From an uncultured delta proteobacterium (GTDB taxonomy: Bacteria; Myxococcota_A; Polyangia; Polyangiales; Polyangiaceae), in assembly GCA_963850305.1 (NCBI GenBank), contig CAWKKR010000007.1:256001-320000 (forward strand): DNA of 64,000 nt. The letters run 5' to 3'. Below, piece after piece: positions 30,565 to 42,267 of this stretch. The first letter of the stretch is position 1. Every line of letters begins with the position of its first letter. A program made the position numbers and the translations under genes. The notes beneath the pieces were generated by a model. The model did no database searches. It was not told the origin of the DNA and saw only the letters and a list, made by a program, of their open reading frames with translations.

Positions 30565-33258
30565 TCACGACGGATGGGCCCCGGACGTCCATTCGAGCAC
30601 GGTCGCGCCGGTACGAGATTCCTGACGCTCCTGGGGGATACGCAGAGTGAATTCCGTCCCCCCACCGGCGCGGTCGCCGACTTCCACGGTTCCGCCGAGT
30701 GACGCAACCACGCGACGCACGATCGTCAGACCGAGACCCATTCCTTTGCCGACGTCCTTCGTCGTGTAAAATGGCGTGAAGATTCTCGCTCGCTCCTCCG
30801 GCCGAATACCGGAGCCGTTATCCGACACGGTGAGCGTCAAGGATCCGTCCTTGGACGACCCCTTCACGAGAACTCTCCCCGTCCCGTCGGGCGGGATCGC
30901 ATCGAGCGCGTTTTGAATCAAGTTGGTCAGCATTTGATTGAATTCCTCCGGGACGCAAACGACCCGGCCGTCGCCATCGAACGACGTCTGCACCTGAGAC
31001 CGTTCCACCCCTGCCTGTAGTACCGCCACGACATCGCGAGCGGCCTCGAACGCGTCGCGCGGCTGAAGGACCCTCGAGTAGCCTTCGCGCGAGTACCGCT
31101 GCATGAGGGTTACAGTGGCGCCGATTCTCTGAAGTCCCGTCTCGGTCACCTGAAACATTCTGCCCATTCGAGTGACTGCCGCCGAGAGCTGTCGAGCAGG
31201 CTCGCTGTTCTCGTCCCTCATCAAGTCTCTTTGCGCGAGTGAGACCAGCGCCTGCGCATCCGCCTCGATGAGAGACAACGCGTTCTTCATGTAGTTGAGC
31301 GGGTTGTTCAATTCGTGAGCCAAGCCGCCGGCGATCGTCTCCAGCGAATCCATGCTGTGCGTCAGCACCAAATCGGCCGTGGTTTCCTGTATTCGCACCA
31401 GACCGCGAACAGTGGTCACCAGTTCGCGTGTCGAGAAGGGCTTCGTCAGATAAGCACTCACCCCCGCCTCGAGACCCGCCACGCGATCCTCCGTATCGCC
31501 CCTCGCGGTGAGCATCACGATCGGGATGTGCCGCGTTCGAGCGTCAGCTCGAAGCCTTCGAGTAACCTCCATCCCGTCCATTCCAGGCATCATCAGGTCG
31601 GTAATGATCAGATTCGGCAAATATCTCGTCGCGAGTTCGATGCCCTTGTCGCCACGAGGGGCTGCGAGCACTCGAAAATGATTCCTGAGCGCCAGGTGGA
31701 TGACGCGTATCACGTCAGGCGTGTCTTCGATGACCAGGACGCTCTGGGCCCGCTCCTGCTCGTCGACGTCTCGCCCGACGACCCGTTGGTCGGTTGCCTC
31801 GTCGATATCGATGAAGCGAAACTGACTCTTCGCCTCCGCGTTCCAGTCCCCGACGTCGTGATCCGTCTCGCGCATCCCGAAGGCCCGATCTTCGTGCCGG
31901 GCGCGGCGGTCGATGCGGGACGGGTCGAAGTGGTCCTGTCCCTTGAGCAGATCCACCGTGAATATAGCGCCTCGCACGGGCGCATTCTCCCCACGGATCT
32001 TGCCACCGTGCAGCAGAACGAACTCTCGCGCCAATGAGAGACCGATGCCCGTGCCGCCGAACTTCCGGGTTCCCGTCATGTCCACCTGGAAGAATCGATC
32101 AAAAAGCGCTTCGGCCATCTCCGGCGGAAAACCCGTGCCGTCGTCCGTGACACTGATGGCCACCGAGTCGTCATTGTCCTGCAGAACGACGTCTATGTTT
32201 CCATTCGTGTGCGTGAACTTCGCTGCGTTCGACAAGAGGTTCACGAACACCCGCTCGAGGCGCTCGAGGTCGCAAAAAATCCGGCAGGTCTCGACGTTCG
32301 ATTCGAAGCTGAGCTCAATCGACTTTCGCTGGGCGAGTGGTTGCACCTGACCAACCAGCTCGCGAAGGTAGGAAACCAGATCGTGCTCCGCGACGCGTAG
32401 ACGCAGGCGCGACTCCGTCAATTTGGAAAGGTCCAGGAGGTCCCCGATGAGCTTCAGGAGCTTCACGCCGCTTCGAAGCATGGACTGCAGCGACCCGCGC
32501 TGAGGCTCGGTCAACTTTCCCATTTCGCCCTGGATCATGAGCTCGAGCGGGGCCAGAATCATGGTCAGCGGAGTTTTCAGCTCGTGCGTGATGTTTGCGA
32601 AAAACTCGGACTTGAAGCGGTCGAGTTCGCGAAGTCTCTCCAGCGTCCCGACCAGATCCGAGGACGCGCGAGCGAGCGAGGAGCGGGCGTTGAACTCCTC
32701 TCGAGCGAGACGAAAGCGGACCGCGCTCGCCGCGATCGCAAGACCGGACGTGAGAACCAGGAAGTAGAGATTGTTGCTGAACGTTCGGGGGTCGAACGTC
32801 GCGCCTCGGATTCCAAACAGAGACGCGCCGACCCAAAGGGTGACCGTGGAACCACAAAGGAAGGCCATGTACTTCCAATGCCAGTTATAAAGAAGACAGA
32901 AAGCGAGAATGGTTGCATTGAGTCCCGCGTAGTAGGGCGAGCCGTACCCTCCGAGGCGCCACATCATCACCAGAACCCCGCCTTGGCAGACCATCGACAA
33001 TGCCGCCGCGGGCCAACCGGGGTGGCGTTGAAAGACAGGCGTGTACGTCAGTGGCAGGACTAGCAACGCCAAGATCGCCGACACGAGGCGGATCAATAAA
33101 AAGTCCGCCACCTGTTCGGGATGTGTCAGCTCATCGAGTATGACCCCGGAGGGGATGGCAATCGCGGCAAGTACGGACCCGAGACGTGTGGCCGAGACGG
33201 TGGCATCGATGGTCTGCTGTTCGAAGGTCCGATCCTTGTACGCTGCGGAGGCCATCAC
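30565..33258 (-). CDS. Membrane hybrid sensor kinase TM-HK-REC-HK (PhcS/PhcR-like architecture)
   Basis: Multi-TM N-terminus with SPYYAGLN; NITHELKTP kinase; DLMMP...YLTKPF receiver; LAHELNNP second kinase; start GTG 33258 or ATG 33255. Confidence 0.9.
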   Translation of the reverse strand: MMASAAYKDRTFEQQTIDATVSATRLGSVLAAIAIPSGVILDELTHPEQVADFLLIRLVSAILALLVLPLTYTPVFQRHPGWPAAALSMVCQGGVLVMMWRLGGYGSPYYAGLNATILAFCLLYNWHWKYMAFLCGSTVTLWVGASLFGIRGATFDPRTFSNNLYFLVLTSGLAIAASAVRFRLAREEFNARSSLARASSDLVGTLERLRELDRFKSEFFANITHELKTPLTMILAPLELMIQGEMGKLTEPQRGSLQSMLRSGVKLLKLIGDLLDLSKLTESRLRLRVAEHDLVSYLRELVGQVQPLAQRKSIELSFESNVETCRIFCDLERLERVFVNLLSNAAKFTHTNGNIDVVLQDNDDSVAISVTDDGTGFPPEMAEALFDRFFQVDMTGTRKFGGTGIGLSLAREFVLLHGGKIRGENAPVRGAIFTVDLLKGQDHFDPSRIDRRARHEDRAFGMRETDHDVGDWNAEAKSQFRFIDIDEATDQRVVGRDVDEQERAQSVLVIEDTPDVIRVIHLALRNHFRVLAAPRGDKGIELATRYLPNLIITDLMMPGMDGMEVTRRLRADARTRHIPIVMLTARGDTEDRVAGLEAGVSAYLTKPFSTRELVTTVRGLVRIQETTADLVLTHSMDSLETIAGGLAHELNNPLNYMKNALSLIEADAQALVSLAQRDLMRDENSEPARQLSAAVTRMGRMFQVTETGLQRIGATVTLMQRYSREGYSRVLQPRDAFEAARDVVAVLQAGVERSQVQTSFDGDGRVVCVPEEFNQMLTNLIQNALDAIPPDGTGRVLVKGSSKDGSLTLTVSDNGSGIRPEERARIFTPFYTTKDVGKGMGLGLTIVRRVVASLGGTVEVGDRAGGGTEFTLRIPQERQESRTGATVLEWTSGAHPS

Positions 33259-34749
33259 CGGACGATTCGCAAAAACAAGTTAATGCCGCTCGGTTCGCTT
33301 CCCACGTCGATACTCGTCGGCTCGGGCAGGAGGGACCGCCCCAGAGCTTCGAGCTCTTCCGGAGAGCGATGCACCAGAAACCAGTCCAAATAGTATTCCA
33401 TCACCCAGCGGGAAGGGTTGTGCCTGGCCACGTTACCGACAATGAGCACGCCACTCGAAACCAGCGCTTCATAGAGGGTCGACAGAAGCCGTGGGAAGGT
33501 GGCTTCGCTCAGATAATCGAAGAGTCCTGCGCTGTAGATGAGTTCACGCCGTCCGAGCGCCTCGGACAAGCGGCGCGTGGTCAGGAGGCGCCGCACGGAC
33601 TCTCGGATGAAGTCGACGCGGGCGCCCGTCTCCACGGCAAGTGGCCCTAAAGTCCGTTCGCAAAAAGCGATCGAGCGTTCTTCCTGATCGATGAGTGCAA
33701 TATCGAGGCGGCGCCCAAGGTGCGGAGCGTCTTCCAGCAGTTTTCGGATCTCGCGCGTCGGTCCGCAGCCGATACTGGCGATGCGAACGCGCTCGCATTC
33801 GCTTCTTTCGATTAGCGTCCTTATCTCTGATGCGAAGTATGCGATGCGGTTGATATTTGCGCGGGCCGCGCCTTCCTGTGTGGCATAGAGGTTCAGCGCT
33901 TTTGCAAACAGGGAGTCACCCTCGGCGTGGTCGCGATACAGCATGTTCATCATTTCGTAGTCGCCGGCGTAGCCGAGGGGCTTTTGATAAGCGCGGCGTA
34001 TGAACGGGGATTCGACGAAGAGCGGCATGAAGTGCGTGCGCAGGAATGCGCGGTACATGGCGTGTTGCGTCTCCGACAGATGAGATACGAGTCGACCTAG
34101 CTCTTCGGAGAACCCATTGAGCCGGGAGACGACGAGTGGTGCTGCTTCTTCGAGGAACGTGCGCAACCCTTCTTCGCGCGTGAGTCGATCTTCGCCTTGC
34201 AACGCTGCCTCTTCCCTCGACAGAAACGTCCTCATGGCATCGAGGTAAGCGCGGACGTCGGCGACGAATGCCTTGAATTCCGGCGCAATCTGATCCAATC
34301 GCAGATCGCTTTCGGCAGCCTGCAATCGTTCAGCGAACCCGTTTCGTGCGTCGTGACGGTACAGTTCCGCCAAATTCACGCCATGGGATGCAAATTCCAC
34401 CCCGACGACGACGTGCGCTCCCCGCTCCGCGATGCGGCGAACGACCGCCGACCCTTCATAGAGCACCCCCCGCGCACACCTCATGACGATCTCGGAAAGT
34501 CTATCCCCGGCGAGGATGAGCGAGTTCGAGAGCTGGGAGCTGGGAACGACCAACGCGGCGCCCTGGGGTGACAGAATCCTCGACGACCGCCTCGAGCGCG
34601 AGTTCGGCCCGCCGGGCCAGTGCCGTGATGCGGCCCAGCTTCAGGTCTTCGACTCGAATGCGTCGGGTACGCAGGCGCTGATCGCTCTTCGGCGGAATCG
34701 ATGTGACGGACGCCGAGGTCGTAGGTGAGGGGGGCTCGGCTATGGACAT
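33255..34749 (-). CDS. PhcB-like SAM methyltransferase with N-terminal PilZ-like domain (one frameshift near 34576)
   Basis: RRAYQKPLGYAGDYEMMN, SIGCGP, IYSAGLFDYL; AGGAG RBS and ATG 34749; deleting one base gives continuous RLRTRRIR...EDLSPQG. Confidence 0.8.
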
Positions 34750-34978
34750 TGACCAACGGCTCCTTGCAGGGATGGGAGTTTCAATGAGCGTCAGGCGCAA
34801 GGCTCATCAGGAGCTCTCGCGCGACATGCGGGCACACCCCGCAGTGCGCGTGCGAAGGAATCTCCTCGACGTTGCGACCGCATCGAACACATTCTCCATC
34901 GACAACAATGTGTCTCAGACGACGTCGCCGTCACTCAGCGCGAAGGTGAAGCGGCGAAAACTCGTGTGGCGCCACTCG

Positions 34979-35402
34979 TCAGTAGTTCCGCATCGACGCG
35001 CGCGTCGTCCCCGAGGAATGAAAGCGGTGCGGAACTACCGAGCGCAGCGAGTACCGGGGGGAGGGGTTGCGTAGCAAGCCCCGGGGGGCGGGCAACGCCC
35101 CCCTTTCTTAGTAGTTCCGCATCGACGAGCAGCGTCGTCCCCGAAGGATCAAAGAGCTGCGGAACTACGCGAGCGGAGCGAGCACGCCGAAGGCGGCGGG
35201 GGGAGCGGTTGCGAAGCAAGCCGCGGGGGGCAAGGCCCCCCTTTGTTAGTAGTTCCGCATCGACGAGCAGCGTCGTCCCCGAAGGATCAAAGAGCTGCGG
35301 AACTACGCGAGCGGAGCGAGCACGCCGAAGGCGGCGGGGGGAGCGGTTGCGAAGCAAGCCGCGGGGGCCAAGGCCCCCCTTTGTTAGTAGTTCCGCATCA
35401 GT
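34979..35402. repeat. Structured REP/REPIN-like tandem array (129, 138, 138 bp units plus a partial fourth)
   Basis: AGTAGTTCCGCATC at 34981, 35110, 35248, 35386; each full unit has the inverted arm TGCGGAACTAC and several GC-GNA-GC hairpins. Confidence 0.92.
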
Positions 35403-35413
35403 TGCTTCTCGGC

Positions 35414-36676
35414 TCATGGATTCTCCTCGCAGCTCGGTAACACCACTCGGAACAGCACACCCCCTCCGGAACGATTCGCGACGTCGATGGCGCCTCCGGC
35501 CTCCTCCACGATGGCCTTGGAGATGGCGAGCCCCAGCCCGGTATTTCGCGCGGAGGTTCCCGCGTGGAGTGGATCGAACAGCGCGAGCAGATCCTTTTCC
35601 TCGATGTTCGGGCCGTTGTCCATGATCTCGAGCCGCACGGTCCCGTCTTCTTCGAAGAGCCTGACGACGATGAAGCGATCTTCGGGCGCGCGCTCCCCGA
35701 CTGCGTCGATCGCGTTGACGAGAAGGTTCAACGCGACCTGGCTCAGCTTTGCGCTCGTGCAGCGCACCTTCGGCACTGCCCGGATGTCGAGACGCACGTC
35801 GGTTCCGTGGCGAATCTCCGCCCGGACGAGCTTCAGCGCGACCCGAAGCACCTCGGTCATCTCCACGAGCTCCGTGTCGCCGTTCGTCGCCGGGAGCTCC
35901 ACGCTGTGCGCGATATCGAGCACGCGGTCCGAGCCCTGGAGAGCGCGTTCCAGGAACTGCTCGACCTCGAGCAGCTTCGTTCTGAGAGTGCGTAGCTCGG
36001 GGCTCGATTGCAGTTCGAGACGGTTCGCGACCGAACGCAACTCGGTCCGCGACGCGACGAGAGAGTCTCGAATCCACGACGCCGGCCGGGCGAGCTCGCG
36101 CCCGATCCCGGCTGCGACCAGCCCGAGGGCGTAGACCCGCTCGGTGAGTAGCAGGCGTTTCTCCGCCGTCCGCACGCGCTGCCGTAGCTCGTAGAGATCG
36201 AGGGAATCGGAGATCTCGGCGCGGAGCTCGGGAAGGGTGCACGGCTTTTTCAGGTAACGCCGCACATGGCCGCGGTTGATCGCGTCGATCGACGCGTCGA
36301 TGTCGGAGTAAGCCGTGATCAGGATGCGGATCGTCTCGGGGAACTCGGTGCGGACCTGTTCCAGCAGCTGAATGCCCGTCGTGCGCGGCATGCGCTGGTC
36401 GGCGAGGATCACGCCCACCTCGTGCTCGCGCATCAACGCCAGGGCATGTTCGGCCCCATTCGCCGTGAGCGCACGGAACCGGTCGGTGCACGCCGCTTCC
36501 CAGACGACGAGATTGGACTCGTCGTCATCGACGAAGAGAACGTGTGCCGCCGAATGTCTGCTGGACACCGAGACGTGGCTGCTGCGGCCGGAAGTCACGG
36601 GCCTCGCGCGGCCGGCCTCGCGCTCGAGACCGTCATCGTGCGTTCGCGCCGCACCCGAGTCAGCGGTCGATCGCAT
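35414..36676 (-). CDS. Receiver-HisKA-HATPase protein (PhcR-like) lacking the phospho-His
   Basis: GGAGG RBS; FVDDD, ADQRMP, TAYSDID...AIN, YLKKP; H-box reads GIGRELARP; NLLVNAIDA, DNGP, GLGL. Confidence 0.85.
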   Translation of the reverse strand: MRSTADSGAARTHDDGLEREAGRARPVTSGRSSHVSVSSRHSAAHVLFVDDDESNLVVWEAACTDRFRALTANGAEHALALMREHEVGVILADQRMPRTTGIQLLEQVRTEFPETIRILITAYSDIDASIDAINRGHVRRYLKKPCTLPELRAEISDSLDLYELRQRVRTAEKRLLLTERVYALGLVAAGIGRELARPASWIRDSLVASRTELRSVANRLELQSSPELRTLRTKLLEVEQFLERALQGSDRVLDIAHSVELPATNGDTELVEMTEVLRVALKLVRAEIRHGTDVRLDIRAVPKVRCTSAKLSQVALNLLVNAIDAVGERAPEDRFIVVRLFEEDGTVRLEIMDNGPNIEEKDLLALFDPLHAGTSARNTGLGLAISKAIVEEAGGAIDVANRSGGGVLFRVVLPSCEENP

Positions 36677-38464: not shown

Positions 38465-39250
38465 ATGCCTGGAGAAAGTGAGCAGACCAGCGCTGCCGGT
38501 GCGGATTCGGAGCGACCGGGGGGCGCGCTGACGATCGACGAACTCGCCGCACAGACCGGGGTGCCGAGTCGGACCATCCGCTTCTATCAAGCCAAGGGGG
38601 CGCTCGCTCCGCCCGTTCGAAGGGGGCGCGTCGCATACTACGACGAATCCCACGCCGAGCGGCTGCGGCTCGTCGCACACATGCAAGATCGCGGGCTCAG
38701 CCTGCGGGCGATCCGTGACTTGTTCCAGCGAACCGAAGGCGGAGACGTCTCGGTTTCCCAGTGGCTCGGTGTGGGCGAACAACTCCGGGCCCCCTGGACC
38801 GACGATCGTCCTCGAGTGTGCACCGAAGAGGAGTTGGAGCAACTGCTCGGCGGTCCCCTCCGTCCCGGACTCATTTCCGACCTGACACGAACCGGTCTCC
38901 TGCGGCGTGAGACGGGAACTTCGCCCACGACGTATTTCATTCAGAGCCCGGCGATGCTCCAGATCGCGCTGAGCCTCGAAATGGCGGGCGTCGGGATCGA
39001 AACGGCGCACATCGCTCACGACATCCTGCGAAAGCAGATCGGTCGCGCCGCCGACGATCTCGTCGAGTACTTCATTCGCAGCGTTCAGGATGCCGCCGGA
39101 CCGGACGAAGTCACTCGCTCTCTGAGTGCGCTCCGCGCGGCGGGAGCTGAAGCCGTTCGCCTCGTATTTGCGCAGGAGATCGAGCGAGCTCTCCGCGAGG
39201 CCGTGGAGCAGGGGCGCGCCCTGCCTCCGGTCCGGAAGCGTAGGCGCTGA
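38465..39250 (+). CDS. MerR-family transcriptional regulator
   Basis: LTIDELAAQTGVPSRTIRFYQAKGAL, YDESHAERL, GLSLRAIR. Confidence 0.9.
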   Translation: MPGESEQTSAAGADSERPGGALTIDELAAQTGVPSRTIRFYQAKGALAPPVRRGRVAYYDESHAERLRLVAHMQDRGLSLRAIRDLFQRTEGGDVSVSQWLGVGEQLRAPWTDDRPRVCTEEELEQLLGGPLRPGLISDLTRTGLLRRETGTSPTTYFIQSPAMLQIALSLEMAGVGIETAHIAHDILRKQIGRAADDLVEYFIRSVQDAAGPDEVTRSLSALRAAGAEAVRLVFAQEIERALREAVEQGRALPPVRKRRR

Positions 39251-39255
39251 GCCTC

Positions 39256-40788
39256 TCAGCTCGCGTACTTCTCGCGCGCGAGCTTTCGCACCTCCTTCTT
39301 CTGGATCTTGCCGATCGTGGTCTTCGGGAGCGCGCTCACGAACTCGACGTATCTGGGTGTCTTGTACCTGGCCAGGTTCGCCTGGCAGTGAGTCCTCAGT
39401 TCGTCCGTGTCGAGCGTCATTCCGGCCCGGGTAACCACGTACGCGCACACTTCTTCGCCCATGCGCTCGTCAGGAACGCCGACGACGGCGACTTCCTGCA
39501 CCGAGGGGTGACGGTAAATCACTTCCTCGACGTCCTTCGGGTAGACATTGAGGCCGCCGCGAATGATGAGGTCCTTCTTTCTTTCGACGATGAACAGATA
39601 CCCGTCTTCATCGAGGTACCCGATGTCGCCCGTGTGGAGCCAGCCGTCCCGGAACGTCTCGGCAGTGGCGTCGAGGTTTCGGTAATAACCCGGGCTGATA
39701 TTTTCGCCGCGCGCACACACTTCTCCAAGTTCTCCGCACGGCAAGTTGCGACCTTCGTCGTCGATGACTTTGAGCTCCACTCCGGCCATGGCCGTGCCGG
39801 TCGAGCCGGGTTTGCGCGGCATACCCTCTCTCTCCACGGCGAGCCCCGGACTCGCCTCGGTGAGTCCGTAACCGACGTGCATCGTCCCGCCGAACTTCGC
39901 CTCGAATTCGCGGAGCTGCTCGACCGGCATCGGCGCCGCGCCGACGAGCCAGCGTTCGACCGACGACGTGTCGTAACGGGCCGCGTTCGGATGCATCATC
40001 ATGTAAACGAACATGGTCGGAACTCCCGCCATGTACTTCACGCGGTACTTCGCGATCAGCGCCAGCGCCTCTTCGGGATTGAACCAGCGCATGAGCACGT
40101 AACGGCTACCGAACAGATATCCGCTCACCGTGACGCCGAGTCCAAAACTGTGCGCGAGCGGAAGGACCAGCAAGCTCGACTCGCCGCGTTTTCGATCCGC
40201 CGCACTGTTCCACGAGTTCATCGCGTTCGAGTAGAGATTGTGGTGCGTCTGCATCACCCCCTTCGGCTGTCCCGTCGTGCCGCTCGTATAAAGGATGGTG
40301 GCAAGATCCGCAGGACCGCGCGGGACGACGGTCGACAGAGGCGGGCGCGCCGCGACCAGGTCGTCGAACGACAGCGTCCCTTCGGGCAAGCTCGCTCGAT
40401 CTCCGGTCACGATGATTCGCACGTGCGTGCCGAGCGTCTTCGTCGCGGCCTGAACCTTGTGGACCACGTCGGTCGACGTGAGGATCGCCGTCGCACCCGA
40501 GTTCTCGAGAATGAAACCGAGTTCGACCGCCTCCAGCAGAAACAGGACGGGGATCGCCGTCATACCGGCGCGCCAGATCCCCGCGTAGCTGGCGAACACT
40601 TCCGGACGGTTGGGCATCATCACGACGACCTTGTCGTCGGGCGACAACCCCAGGGCGATGAGAGCCGCGGCCAGACGCGCCCCGAGTTCGTGAAGCGCCC
40701 GATTCGAGTACGCGCGTCCCTCGAAGATGACCGAATCGTATTGCCCGTACTCTTCGAGATTCCGATCCGCGAGCGTCGCGAGGTTCAT
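39256..40788 (-). CDS. Long-chain fatty acyl-CoA synthetase (AMP-binding)
   Basis: YTSGTTGQPKG, GYGLTE, GWLHTGD, RKKDLIIRGG, GKIQK. Confidence 0.93.
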   Translation of the reverse strand: MNLATLADRNLEEYGQYDSVIFEGRAYSNRALHELGARLAAALIALGLSPDDKVVVMMPNRPEVFASYAGIWRAGMTAIPVLFLLEAVELGFILENSGATAILTSTDVVHKVQAATKTLGTHVRIIVTGDRASLPEGTLSFDDLVAARPPLSTVVPRGPADLATILYTSGTTGQPKGVMQTHHNLYSNAMNSWNSAADRKRGESSLLVLPLAHSFGLGVTVSGYLFGSRYVLMRWFNPEEALALIAKYRVKYMAGVPTMFVYMMMHPNAARYDTSSVERWLVGAAPMPVEQLREFEAKFGGTMHVGYGLTEASPGLAVEREGMPRKPGSTGTAMAGVELKVIDDEGRNLPCGELGEVCARGENISPGYYRNLDATAETFRDGWLHTGDIGYLDEDGYLFIVERKKDLIIRGGLNVYPKDVEEVIYRHPSVQEVAVVGVPDERMGEEVCAYVVTRAGMTLDTDELRTHCQANLARYKTPRYVEFVSALPKTTIGKIQKKEVRKLAREKYAS

Positions 40789-40833
40789 GCGCCGTTCCCC
40801 GGGGGTTGCATCGGCGGATGATACTCTCGGACC

Positions 40834-42072
40834 TCAACCGAGACGGGCACGACGCACGGACCTTCCAAAAAAATCCTTCACGAGGCGGTGCGTCAACTCG
40901 GGTTGCTCGAACTGGGGGATGTGGCCGCAGTCGTCGAGGACGACGGACTCCGCCCACGGCAACGCCTGCTCCACGTGTCGTGCGAAGCCGATGGGAACCA
41001 TCCGATCCCGATCGCCCCAGAGGAACAACGCGGGCACGCCGAGGCCTCCGAGCCGCGACCAGAACCCGTACGGACCGAAGGGCTGCTCGAGATAGATCTG
41101 GCGCGCTGCGGCGAACAGCGCGACTCGTCCGCTCGGTGTCCGGAACACCCTTAGAAATTCGTCGGTCGCCGCGTCGTGCCACGACGCGGGCAGGCGATCC
41201 GGATTCGAGAACAGCAGTCGAAGCCCATGCCGGGCCTGGGAACCGAGTGCGGGAAGCGGCAGCGCGCCCATCTCCGGTGACAGGAATTTCGCGATTGGAA
41301 CCGCGTGACGGAGGCGGCGGAACGCCAGGGACGGTGCGAGGAGCGCCACGGCATCGATGCGTTCCGGTGCGAGGAGCGCCGTCTCCAGTGCGACGCGCCC
41401 GCCCATCGAATTGCCCACCAGGCTCGCCCGGTGAATGCCAATCGCGTCCATGAACGCAAGGAGCCACCGTGCGAAAAAAGGAGCATCGTACGCGGCGTGC
41501 GGCTTCGCCGAGTCACCGAAGCCGGGCAGGTCGGGTGCGAGCACGCGGTGCTCGGCGGCGACGGCCGCGAGCGTCGGGATCATCGAGGCATTGGTCGCGC
41601 CGAGCCCGTGCAAGAGGATCACGGGCGGACCGGCTCCGGCTTCGAGATAGAAGGTGTCGATGCCCGCCGCTTCGACGCGCTTGGGCTTTGCGCGGTCCGA
41701 GGGGCGCGAGCGTCGATCGAACACGCCGTCCAGTTTCAGTGCGAGAGAGAGGTTGCCCCGCACCCGAAGCCGTCCGCGAAGAAACGACTCGATGCCCCCT
41801 CGCTTGCCGCGGACGATCCCCGCGAGAGTGAGCGGATCGCCGGTGATGGTCGTCTCGGCGTCGCGGGCGCGTCCTTGCTCCACGGAGAGCCGTCCGTGCT
41901 CGATGCGTACCGTCCAGAGCTCCGATGTGCCGTCGTCGAGGACCACCGCTCCCGAGAGCCCGCGCATCGCCGGCGGTCGCGGCGCGAAATGTGCGAACGT
42001 CTCGCACAGCGCTCCGCTCGTGTTCGTTTGACGCACGCCGTCGAGGGATGGCCACCGGGCGAGCCGCAGCAT
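40834..42072 (-). CDS. SCP2 sterol-carrier domain fused to alpha/beta hydrolase
   Basis: FLRGRLRVRGNLSLA (SCP2); HGLG, DLPGFG, GNSMGG, WGDRD, CGHIPQ; start ATG 42072 or GTG 42138. Confidence 0.87.
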   Translation of the reverse strand: MLRLARWPSLDGVRQTNTSGALCETFAHFAPRPPAMRGLSGAVVLDDGTSELWTVRIEHGRLSVEQGRARDAETTITGDPLTLAGIVRGKRGGIESFLRGRLRVRGNLSLALKLDGVFDRRSRPSDRAKPKRVEAAGIDTFYLEAGAGPPVILLHGLGATNASMIPTLAAVAAEHRVLAPDLPGFGDSAKPHAAYDAPFFARWLLAFMDAIGIHRASLVGNSMGGRVALETALLAPERIDAVALLAPSLAFRRLRHAVPIAKFLSPEMGALPLPALGSQARHGLRLLFSNPDRLPASWHDAATDEFLRVFRTPSGRVALFAAARQIYLEQPFGPYGFWSRLGGLGVPALFLWGDRDRMVPIGFARHVEQALPWAESVVLDDCGHIPQFEQPELTHRLVKDFFGRSVRRARLG

Positions 42073-42267
42073 GTCGGCATTTTCGACGCGATCCGCCAGG
42101 CGAGGAAAATTTCCCGATCCGAAGCGGACCTGCGACACGACCGCTGAGGTTGTCGATTGAGCTCTTGCGTAGTGGCGAGTGTCGCGGGGATGGAGCTACC
42201 ATCATGAAGATTCGCGCCGGAGGAGTATTTTTCGAGGCCGGCGCACTTTCCCTGGGATCACGTCATC

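Follow-up and report, generated by a model that had tools for sequence, protein, structure and literature searches.

A PhcB-like methyltransferase and a PhcS-like sensor that vary together in Myxococcota: a candidate signal synthase and receptor pair

Does a myxobacterial genome carry its own form of the phc quorum-sensing system of Ralstonia? The question is raised by a locus at positions 30,565 to 36,676 of a 64,000-nucleotide (nt) stretch of contig CAWKKR010000007.1, here called the window, from the genome of an uncultured member of the Polyangiaceae (G000; 94.8% complete). A passage of PMC8578825 describes the product of Ralstonia phcBS as a secreted ester. An earlier reading made from the letters alone (the sequence-only reading) had proposed that a methyltransferase, a sensor kinase and a receiver-kinase protein (REC-kinase) in the window form a phcB/phcS/phcR-like system, with a PhcR-like module fused to the sensor. 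The locus is a real Phc-like system and is not a member of the phcBSRQ group. In the reading that we prefer, with a probability of about 0.68, the enzyme would make a diffusible lipid methyl ester and the sensor would be its cognate receptor, the pair existing in several specificity types, with a two-kinase relay ending on a REC-pseudokinase. The support comprises homology, architecture, gene coupling and joint exchange.

Most of the gene content is as first described. The motif KPLGYAGDYEM runs from position 33983 downward in a class I S-adenosylmethionine (SAM) methyltransferase, and the same piece of the gene contains SIGCGP, LIDQE and YSAGLFDYL. The methyltransferase and sensor genes are translationally coupled, their stop and start codons overlapping as GTGATG at 33258-33253. 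The sensor has multiple membrane helices and the proposed order of two histidine kinases (HK) around a receiver (HK-REC-HK): six hydrophobic segments (17-residue window, threshold 1.2; a stricter setting gives four), a HisKA-HATPase pair, a REC domain and a second HisKA-HATPase pair. The REC-kinase gene was found upstream on the same strand, at 35414-36676.

Homology was measured against a reference set of phc loci, all from named betaproteobacterial genomes, in which the 80 best of at least 568 were used. This set includes the phcBSRQ genes of R. syzygii (L085), whose PhcB has 464 amino acids (aa); a passage of PMC7694676 gives 464-468 aa for PhcB, and in one of PMC6989110 the genera said to carry homologues are Ralstonia, Cupriavidus and Paraburkholderia. 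Profiles from 73-79 betaproteobacterial phc loci were run on the 43,784 stop-to-stop open reading frames (ORFs) of G000, and each of the three genes was picked out, as the sequence-only reading had expected. The window enzyme was the sole match in the genome to the PhcB catalytic profile (183 bits) and is 29% identical to R. syzygii PhcB over 431 aa (E 2e-50), which places it outside unrelated methyltransferase clades. The sensor does have PhcS similarity in its membrane domain: its N-terminus was the sole match to the PhcS membrane-domain profile among all these ORFs (independent E-value, iE, 1.4e-11; next best 3), and it is 22% identical to R. syzygii PhcS over 203 aa (E 8e-8). The REC-kinase ranked first with both the PhcR and the PhcQ receiver profiles. 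Its receiver groups with PhcR and PhcQ in the REC tree (support 86/96), and its kinase domain clusters with further kinases encoded in G000 and not with PhcR. Pfam has no family for the membrane domain, for which Atlas returned unnamed clusters and mixed MASE families that its own check rated unreliable, and sequence searches of the PDB found no solved relative of PhcB. Many close homologues in KEGG/JGI are labelled, by similarity, 'extracellular factor (EF) 3-hydroxypalmitic acid methyl ester biosynthesis protein'. The PhcB homology is thus already in databases; the label is silent on receptor pairing, on a PilZ domain and on swaps. Among top-ranked literature matches, none was found that joins PhcB with myxobacteria or with PilZ.

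The proposed fusion of a PhcR-like module to the sensor was not supported by this comparison. With the PhcR receiver profile, the internal receiver of the sensor scored 26 bits and ranked 41st of 100, versus 91 bits for the stand-alone REC-kinase. In the receiver tree it falls outside the clade that unites PhcR, PhcQ and the stand-alone REC-kinase. A fusion could apply to kinase 2 alone, whose position beside PhcR in the kinase tree is not firm (83/31, long branches). It ranks third of 106 on the PhcR kinase profile (73 bits) but scores higher, 90 bits, on the PhcS kinase profile. In the same tree, the sister of PhcS (100/99) is the distal kinase found in the sensor of G008, the closest long-form relative, and the G008 enzyme is sister to betaproteobacterial PhcB. 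The sister placement of the kinases suggests that PhcS is made of the membrane domain plus the distal kinase, the direction of loss or gain being unrooted. The G008 locus (L032), from the family of the window, combines a PhcB resembling that of betaproteobacteria with a long HK-REC-HK sensor and a weakly PhcQ-like gene and could be an intermediate form.

The import of a whole phcBSR operon from Ralstonia-like bacteria, with PhcR then fused to the sensor, is hardly credible and largely refuted. Its appeal came from the position of kinase 2 just described and from base composition, as the block had been noted as AT-rich. This was right for two of the genes. The GC content at third codon positions (GC3), ranked among 2608 called genes, is 0.697 for the methyltransferase (0.8th percentile) and 0.747 for the sensor (9th); the REC-kinase, at 0.829 (67th), is not AT-rich. 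The methyltransferase orthologue of G006, from the same genus, lies at the 28th percentile and is not low. Against an import stand the place of the internal receiver and the enzyme tree, in which a clade of the window enzyme with betaproteobacterial PhcB was rejected by the approximately unbiased (AU) test (p 1.1e-6). The nearest homologues, 53-70% identical, also argue against it: where a taxon label is given, it is mostly Polyangiaceae or Myxococcales, besides one Vulgatibacter and a single member of Pseudomonadota. The protein of G006 and P0049, labelled Polyangiaceae, have an N-terminal stretch in common. The assignment of the window to a myxobacterium thus stands on good ground. Of the earlier proposal of horizontal origin, exchange among Myxococcota remains as likely. 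The window enzyme is 60-61% identical to its own type within the genus and 58-61% in other genera of the family; since it is no closer to the same-genus type, separate acquisition from another myxobacterium fits.

Four features that define phcBSRQ were tested and none was found, so the locus is not a member of that group. PhcS has a single kinase, with one H-box in 77 of 77 sequences, and the sensor here is kinase-REC-kinase. PhcR keeps its phosphoacceptor histidine in 64 of 73 sequences (the other nine were not matched by the pattern). In the REC-kinase of the window, the H-box alignment shows Arg193 in place of this residue, with Asp93 of the receiver kept. The histidine is present in none of 10 such proteins from the genus and in 13 of 30 from all the non-Ralstonia loci aligned, and the REC-kinase is likely a pseudokinase. 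The third feature is the C-terminal domain of PhcQ. The last is a single B-S-R-Q operon; in the window the REC-kinase lies upstream of the B-S pair, and same-genus relatives keep the order B-S-(REC-kinase). The likeness to Phc lies elsewhere: the gene of a PhcB-family methyltransferase immediately precedes that of a sensor whose six-helix domain is homologous, a PhcR/PhcQ-clade receiver is close by, and enzyme and sensor vary together.

This co-variation was analyzed in 23 complete loci of the 33 assembled (the other 10 were without one domain). Pairwise identities of enzyme and membrane domain are correlated at rho 0.85, and at 0.82 as a partial correlation given kinase 1 (p 0.001). With the enzyme held, the membrane domain and kinase 1 of the very same polypeptide show a partial correlation of -0.05. 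The genus of the window (seven genomes) has three genomes of type A and four of type B. Type B is 31-34% identical to the window in the enzyme and 23-25% in the membrane domain, and kinase 1 and the receiver are 70-75% and 77-82% identical in all seven genomes. Kinase 1 of this genus forms one clade (75/92). Monophyly of the genus was rejected for the enzyme (AU p 7.8e-5, from a quick tree) and weakly rejected for the membrane domain (p 0.04). Genus g27 (four genomes) repeats this pattern, with kinase 1 in one clade (96/93) and membrane-domain monophyly rejected (p 0.028). The switch falls at sensor aa 200-220, where identity to type B goes from 0.15 (aa 181-200) to 0.9-1.0 (aa 221-240). Because the discord lies within one polypeptide, old paralogy with differential loss is insufficient alone, and recombination inside the sensor gene is needed.

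According to a passage of PMC7694676 citing Kai et al. 2015, PhcB and PhcS of Ralstonia vary together with the type of signal, irrespective of phylotype, and a passage of PMC6580516 describes both as under balancing selection. The principle of co-variation is thus already known. The present analysis adds its depth and the intragenic swap in Myxococcota, where the variants diverge far more than in Ralstonia (~30% identity) and recombine inside the sensor gene. Together, the PhcB/PhcS homology and the joint exchange between genomes suggest that the enzyme and the membrane domain are a matched signal-maker and receptor, which would likely keep the chemical signals of these bacteria private.

Joint exchange would also be compatible with an enzyme whose methylation target is the sensor, or else some partner in the membrane or inside the cell, as in CheR-like adaptation. 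No signal would then be secreted, and the exchange would reflect the fit of enzyme to substrate. PilZ control of a CheR methyltransferase is known from MapZ in Pseudomonas, and homologues of the window enzyme have weak CheR matches in Pfam (E 0.004-0.085). The same weak match, however, is present on the Cupriavidus PhcB P0234 (E 0.0028), and the part of the sensor that co-varies is almost all membrane helices. Full-length homology and gene coupling as in phcBS, whose product is the secreted ester (passage of PMC8578825), also argue against this explanation, which we regard as distinctly unlikely.

The pairing extends well beyond the genus. Matches to the enzyme (E<=1e-3) were found in 13 of 41 near relatives, including all six other genomes of the genus, and in 106 of 401 genomes of the phylum, G000 included; the match is strong (E<1e-20) in 87 of the 401. 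A PhcS-type membrane domain lies directly downstream in at least 64 of these 87 genomes and within 8 kb in at least 77. For the 68 genomes outside the profile, the same counts are at least 45 and at least 58. All are floors, since positions were typed from two tables without most weak matches, and 36 weak membrane-domain matches are not among them. The sensor was directly downstream in 29 of 36 extended loci (all 16 from the near-relative search and 20 chosen by score and contig size from the phylum search), and 27 of these 29 have a receiver of the PhcR/PhcQ type. The distribution is patchy: 21 of 26 genomes in one family (f32) and none of 34 in another (f29).

The enzymes of the window's type differ from betaproteobacterial PhcB by PilZ-type motifs in the N-terminal part. 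RxxxR followed by (D/N)xSxxG, the motif pair of PilZ domains, is present in 97 of 111 full-length close homologues and in 0 of 120 betaproteobacterial PhcB proteins. None of the type B enzymes examined shows this motif pair, which thus characterizes types A and C and not the family as a whole. In the window the second motif is split by a frameshift. The Pfam PilZ model scored 22.5 bits on the intact homologue P0002, equal to its cut-off, and among the five proteins tested it was weaker on two and absent on two. A structure model of P0002 (predicted local distance difference test, pLDDT, 87.8) has six strands in its N-terminal domain, then a helical middle part and a methyltransferase of the Rossmann type. 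Fold searches with P0002 returned class I methyltransferases only, the best being 3ocj (Z 20.6, root-mean-square deviation 3.4, 260 residues aligned); these searches barely cover the residues before 236 and, therefore, speak neither for nor against PilZ. The putative PilZ domain would tune enzyme output by cyclic di-GMP (c-di-GMP).

The same frameshift divides the methyltransferase gene, which had been taken as one span from 33255 to 34749. It is read in two frames, -3 down to 34576 and -1 from 34574. The window gene gave two-frame matches to 89 of 119 homologues, and intact homologues are mostly 480-530 aa long. The frameshift was judged from the genome-wide indel rate. Orthologues are frameshifted in G000 for 11 of the 106 genes of G006 that were tested, and the reverse control found 1 shifted gene of 104, itself among the genes shifted in G000. 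At this rate, a 498-codon gene has a ~13% chance of carrying a shift. As ~10% of G000 genes are shifted, an assembly error is the likelier cause.

Another possible explanation is that the family works as we propose and the window's own synthase is a true recent pseudogene, which would leave a listen-only receptor or an internally restarted enzyme without PilZ. The frameshift is present in the assembly, orphan sensors occur, and the REC-kinase is upstream and apart here and downstream of the sensor in same-genus relatives. Against this, the shifted genes of the assembly include the orthologues of thioredoxin reductase and a MurC/Mpl ligase, there is no other lesion across 497 codons, and both pieces are 38-69% identical to homologues (38-61% for the 5' piece against the N-termini of intact homologues, in frame -3). 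We consider a real pseudogene unlikely. The frameshift rate of G000 also calls for caution with other split-gene findings in this genome.

How would the system work? From domain content and conserved residues, the enzyme would use SAM to methylate the carboxyl group of a fatty-acid-type substrate, tuned by c-di-GMP through the PilZ-type domain. The ester would diffuse and bind the six-helix domain of the sensor. Kinase 1 (His225) would then phosphorylate the internal receiver (Asp554), and this would switch kinase 2 (His648), as in LvrA/LvrB. The phosphate would pass to Asp93 of the REC-pseudokinase, which, given its missing histidine, may be a terminal switch or sink that acts through protein contact. 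Swapping the enzyme and membrane domain onto an unchanged kinase core would create a new signal dialect with the response wiring kept.

Parts of this scheme have counterparts in known systems. In Staphylococcus agr and Bacillus comQXP, the signal gene varies as one unit with the front part of the receptor, where the ligand binds, on a conserved kinase core. These use peptide signals and have no sequence homology to the locus, so that the likeness is an analogy only; agr has been compared with phc in a passage of PMC6580516. An HK-REC-HK hybrid with a REC-HK partner, which is also the cytoplasmic layout found here, is described for LvrA/LvrB of Leptospira in passages of PMC5863495, and passages of PMC13269768 treat receiver-controlled kinases and their activation mechanism there. 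LvrA is the best NCBIfam match of the sensor, at 301.7 bits against a cut-off of 1200. The two differ, as LvrA is cytoplasmic with a PAS input and the sensor here has a membrane input, and LvrB keeps His161. The passages of both papers mention no methyltransferase.

Several observations weigh against the proposed synthase and receptor pair. PhcS-type membrane domains occur in more genomes than the enzyme does (of 401, 151 have the domain at E<=1e-5 and 106 the enzyme at E<=1e-3), and 10 of the 83 genomes with a strong membrane-domain match have no strong enzyme match, which suggests that the domain also serves without a synthase. Conversely, 6 of the 87 enzyme-bearing genomes have no PhcS-type sensor among the matches listed, and three enzyme copies adjoin Ser/Thr kinases instead. 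The PhcQ C-terminal domain has no match in G000 (best iE 0.29). As for PhcA, the LysR regulator through which Phc output runs, G000 has four LysR matches, none on the contig of the window. The frameshift could be real. Low GC3 extends along the entire sensor (4th-16th percentile), beyond the swapped part. The two genera are externally defined but were chosen after the first trees, kin are not independent, and the membrane-domain AU values are modest. Lastly, an identity to PhcB of only 29% and a generic small-molecule methyltransferase fold make the product no more than a prediction; that it is a 3-hydroxy fatty acid ester in particular is somewhat less likely than not.

The sensors without a synthase would also suit a system in which a lipid-like compound from outside, such as one of prey origin, is detected by the sensor and then inactivated or recoded through methylation by the enzyme. 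Co-variation would be expected there too, and M. xanthus responds to acyl-homoserine lactone (AHL) signals of prey, as described in a passage of PMC7862692. However, the only characterized homologues are autoinducer synthases, and the pair has no conserved neighbor of the esterase, transporter or fatty-acid kind, judging by the six neighboring window genes in 36 loci. We hold this explanation to be very unlikely and keep to the cognate synthase and receptor.

Several loci elsewhere have unusual forms of these genes. Possible listen-only receptors, with a strong membrane domain and no strong PhcB found, are in G032, G202, G204, G235, G300, G320, G329, G334, G339 and G408. L030, L031 and L147 have a PhcB-like gene beside long genes, with no PhcS-type sensor; where scanned, in L030 and L147, the long genes are Ser/Thr kinases or kinase-AAA proteins, and L031 has a neighbor of the same length. 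In G279, a weak PhcS-type membrane domain is fused to a Ser/Thr kinase (L161:4146-5813), convergent with the histidine-kinase sensor, and a methyltransferase of the cyclopropane-synthase family lies upstream of the PhcB-like gene. G009 encodes a 1084-aa protein in which a cyclic-nucleotide-binding domain is fused to a PhcB-like methyltransferase (L033:6461-9715). A phcB-phcS-receiver-phcQ-like block is carried by a conjugative plasmid of Paraburkholderia graminis (L018:4823-11253), with a cyclopropane-fatty-acyl synthase gene upstream. On two Enterobacter ludwigii plasmids (H5, H6), a PhcB-like catalytic domain is located within a type I polyketide synthase.

The features of the window are listed in Table 1. 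Between the REC-kinase and the start of the methyltransferase are 664 nt that span three copies of a 138-nt repeat, and with this gap and repeat array co-transcription of the two genes is not evident. No sigma-70 promoter match was found upstream. With blastn the repeat was matched 246 times, spread over 97 separate places of G000; it is genome-wide and not particular to the phc-like system, and may be of the repetitive extragenic palindromic (REP) kind or a small mobile element. Beyond the locus, positions 38465-42138 encode a MerR regulator, an acyl-CoA ligase and an SCP2-hydrolase fusion. A functional link to these lipid genes was rejected, as they are not conserved in 35 of 36 loci; of the six neighboring window genes only the ligase was matched, in 1 of 36 loci at 32%.

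Table 1. Features of the Phc-like locus, in positions of the window
Feature	Position	Strand	Description	Basis
Sensor kinase	30565..33258	-	897 aa; membrane domain, kinase 1 (His225), receiver (Asp554), kinase 2 (His648)	Pfam, residue positions
PhcS-type membrane sensing domain of the sensor	32719..33183	-	aa 26-180; six hydrophobic segments; YYAGLN at aa 109	
PhcB-like gene, 3' piece	33255..34574	-	439 codons; rest of PilZ-type barrel, helical middle domain, class I SAM methyltransferase domain	
One-base frameshift	34575..34576	-	splits the DxSxxG PilZ motif; probable assembly indel	
PhcB-like gene, 5' piece	34576..34749	-	58 codons; ATG with AGGAG upstream; RxxxR of PilZ-type domain at 34677	
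138-nt palindromic intergenic repeat	34978..35406		about three tandem copies; between REC-kinase and methyltransferase	
REC-kinase-like protein	35414..36676	-	420 aa; PhcR/PhcQ-type receiver (Asp93); kinase fold with Arg193 at the phospho-His position	

The chemistry of this system is predicted from sequence, its hosts are mostly uncultured, and the enzymes are already labelled PhcB in databases. Even so, a paired synthase and receptor in at least 77 of 401 sampled genomes of the phylum offers a concrete candidate for a diffusible signal that these bacteria make themselves, and one that can be tested at low cost. The natural swaps offer ready specificity pairs for finding ligands and for locating the ligand pocket of PhcS-type domains, and the predicted PilZ domain would give c-di-GMP a direct link to autoinducer synthesis. 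As a tentative proposal, to which we give somewhat less than even odds, about a fifth of the sampled Myxococcota may practice an undescribed kind of small-molecule quorum sensing or kin recognition through exchangeable pherotype cassettes of a c-di-GMP-gated PhcB-type synthase and its receptor, each with its own lipid methyl ester, and the Phc system of Ralstonia would be a shortened offshoot of this long form.

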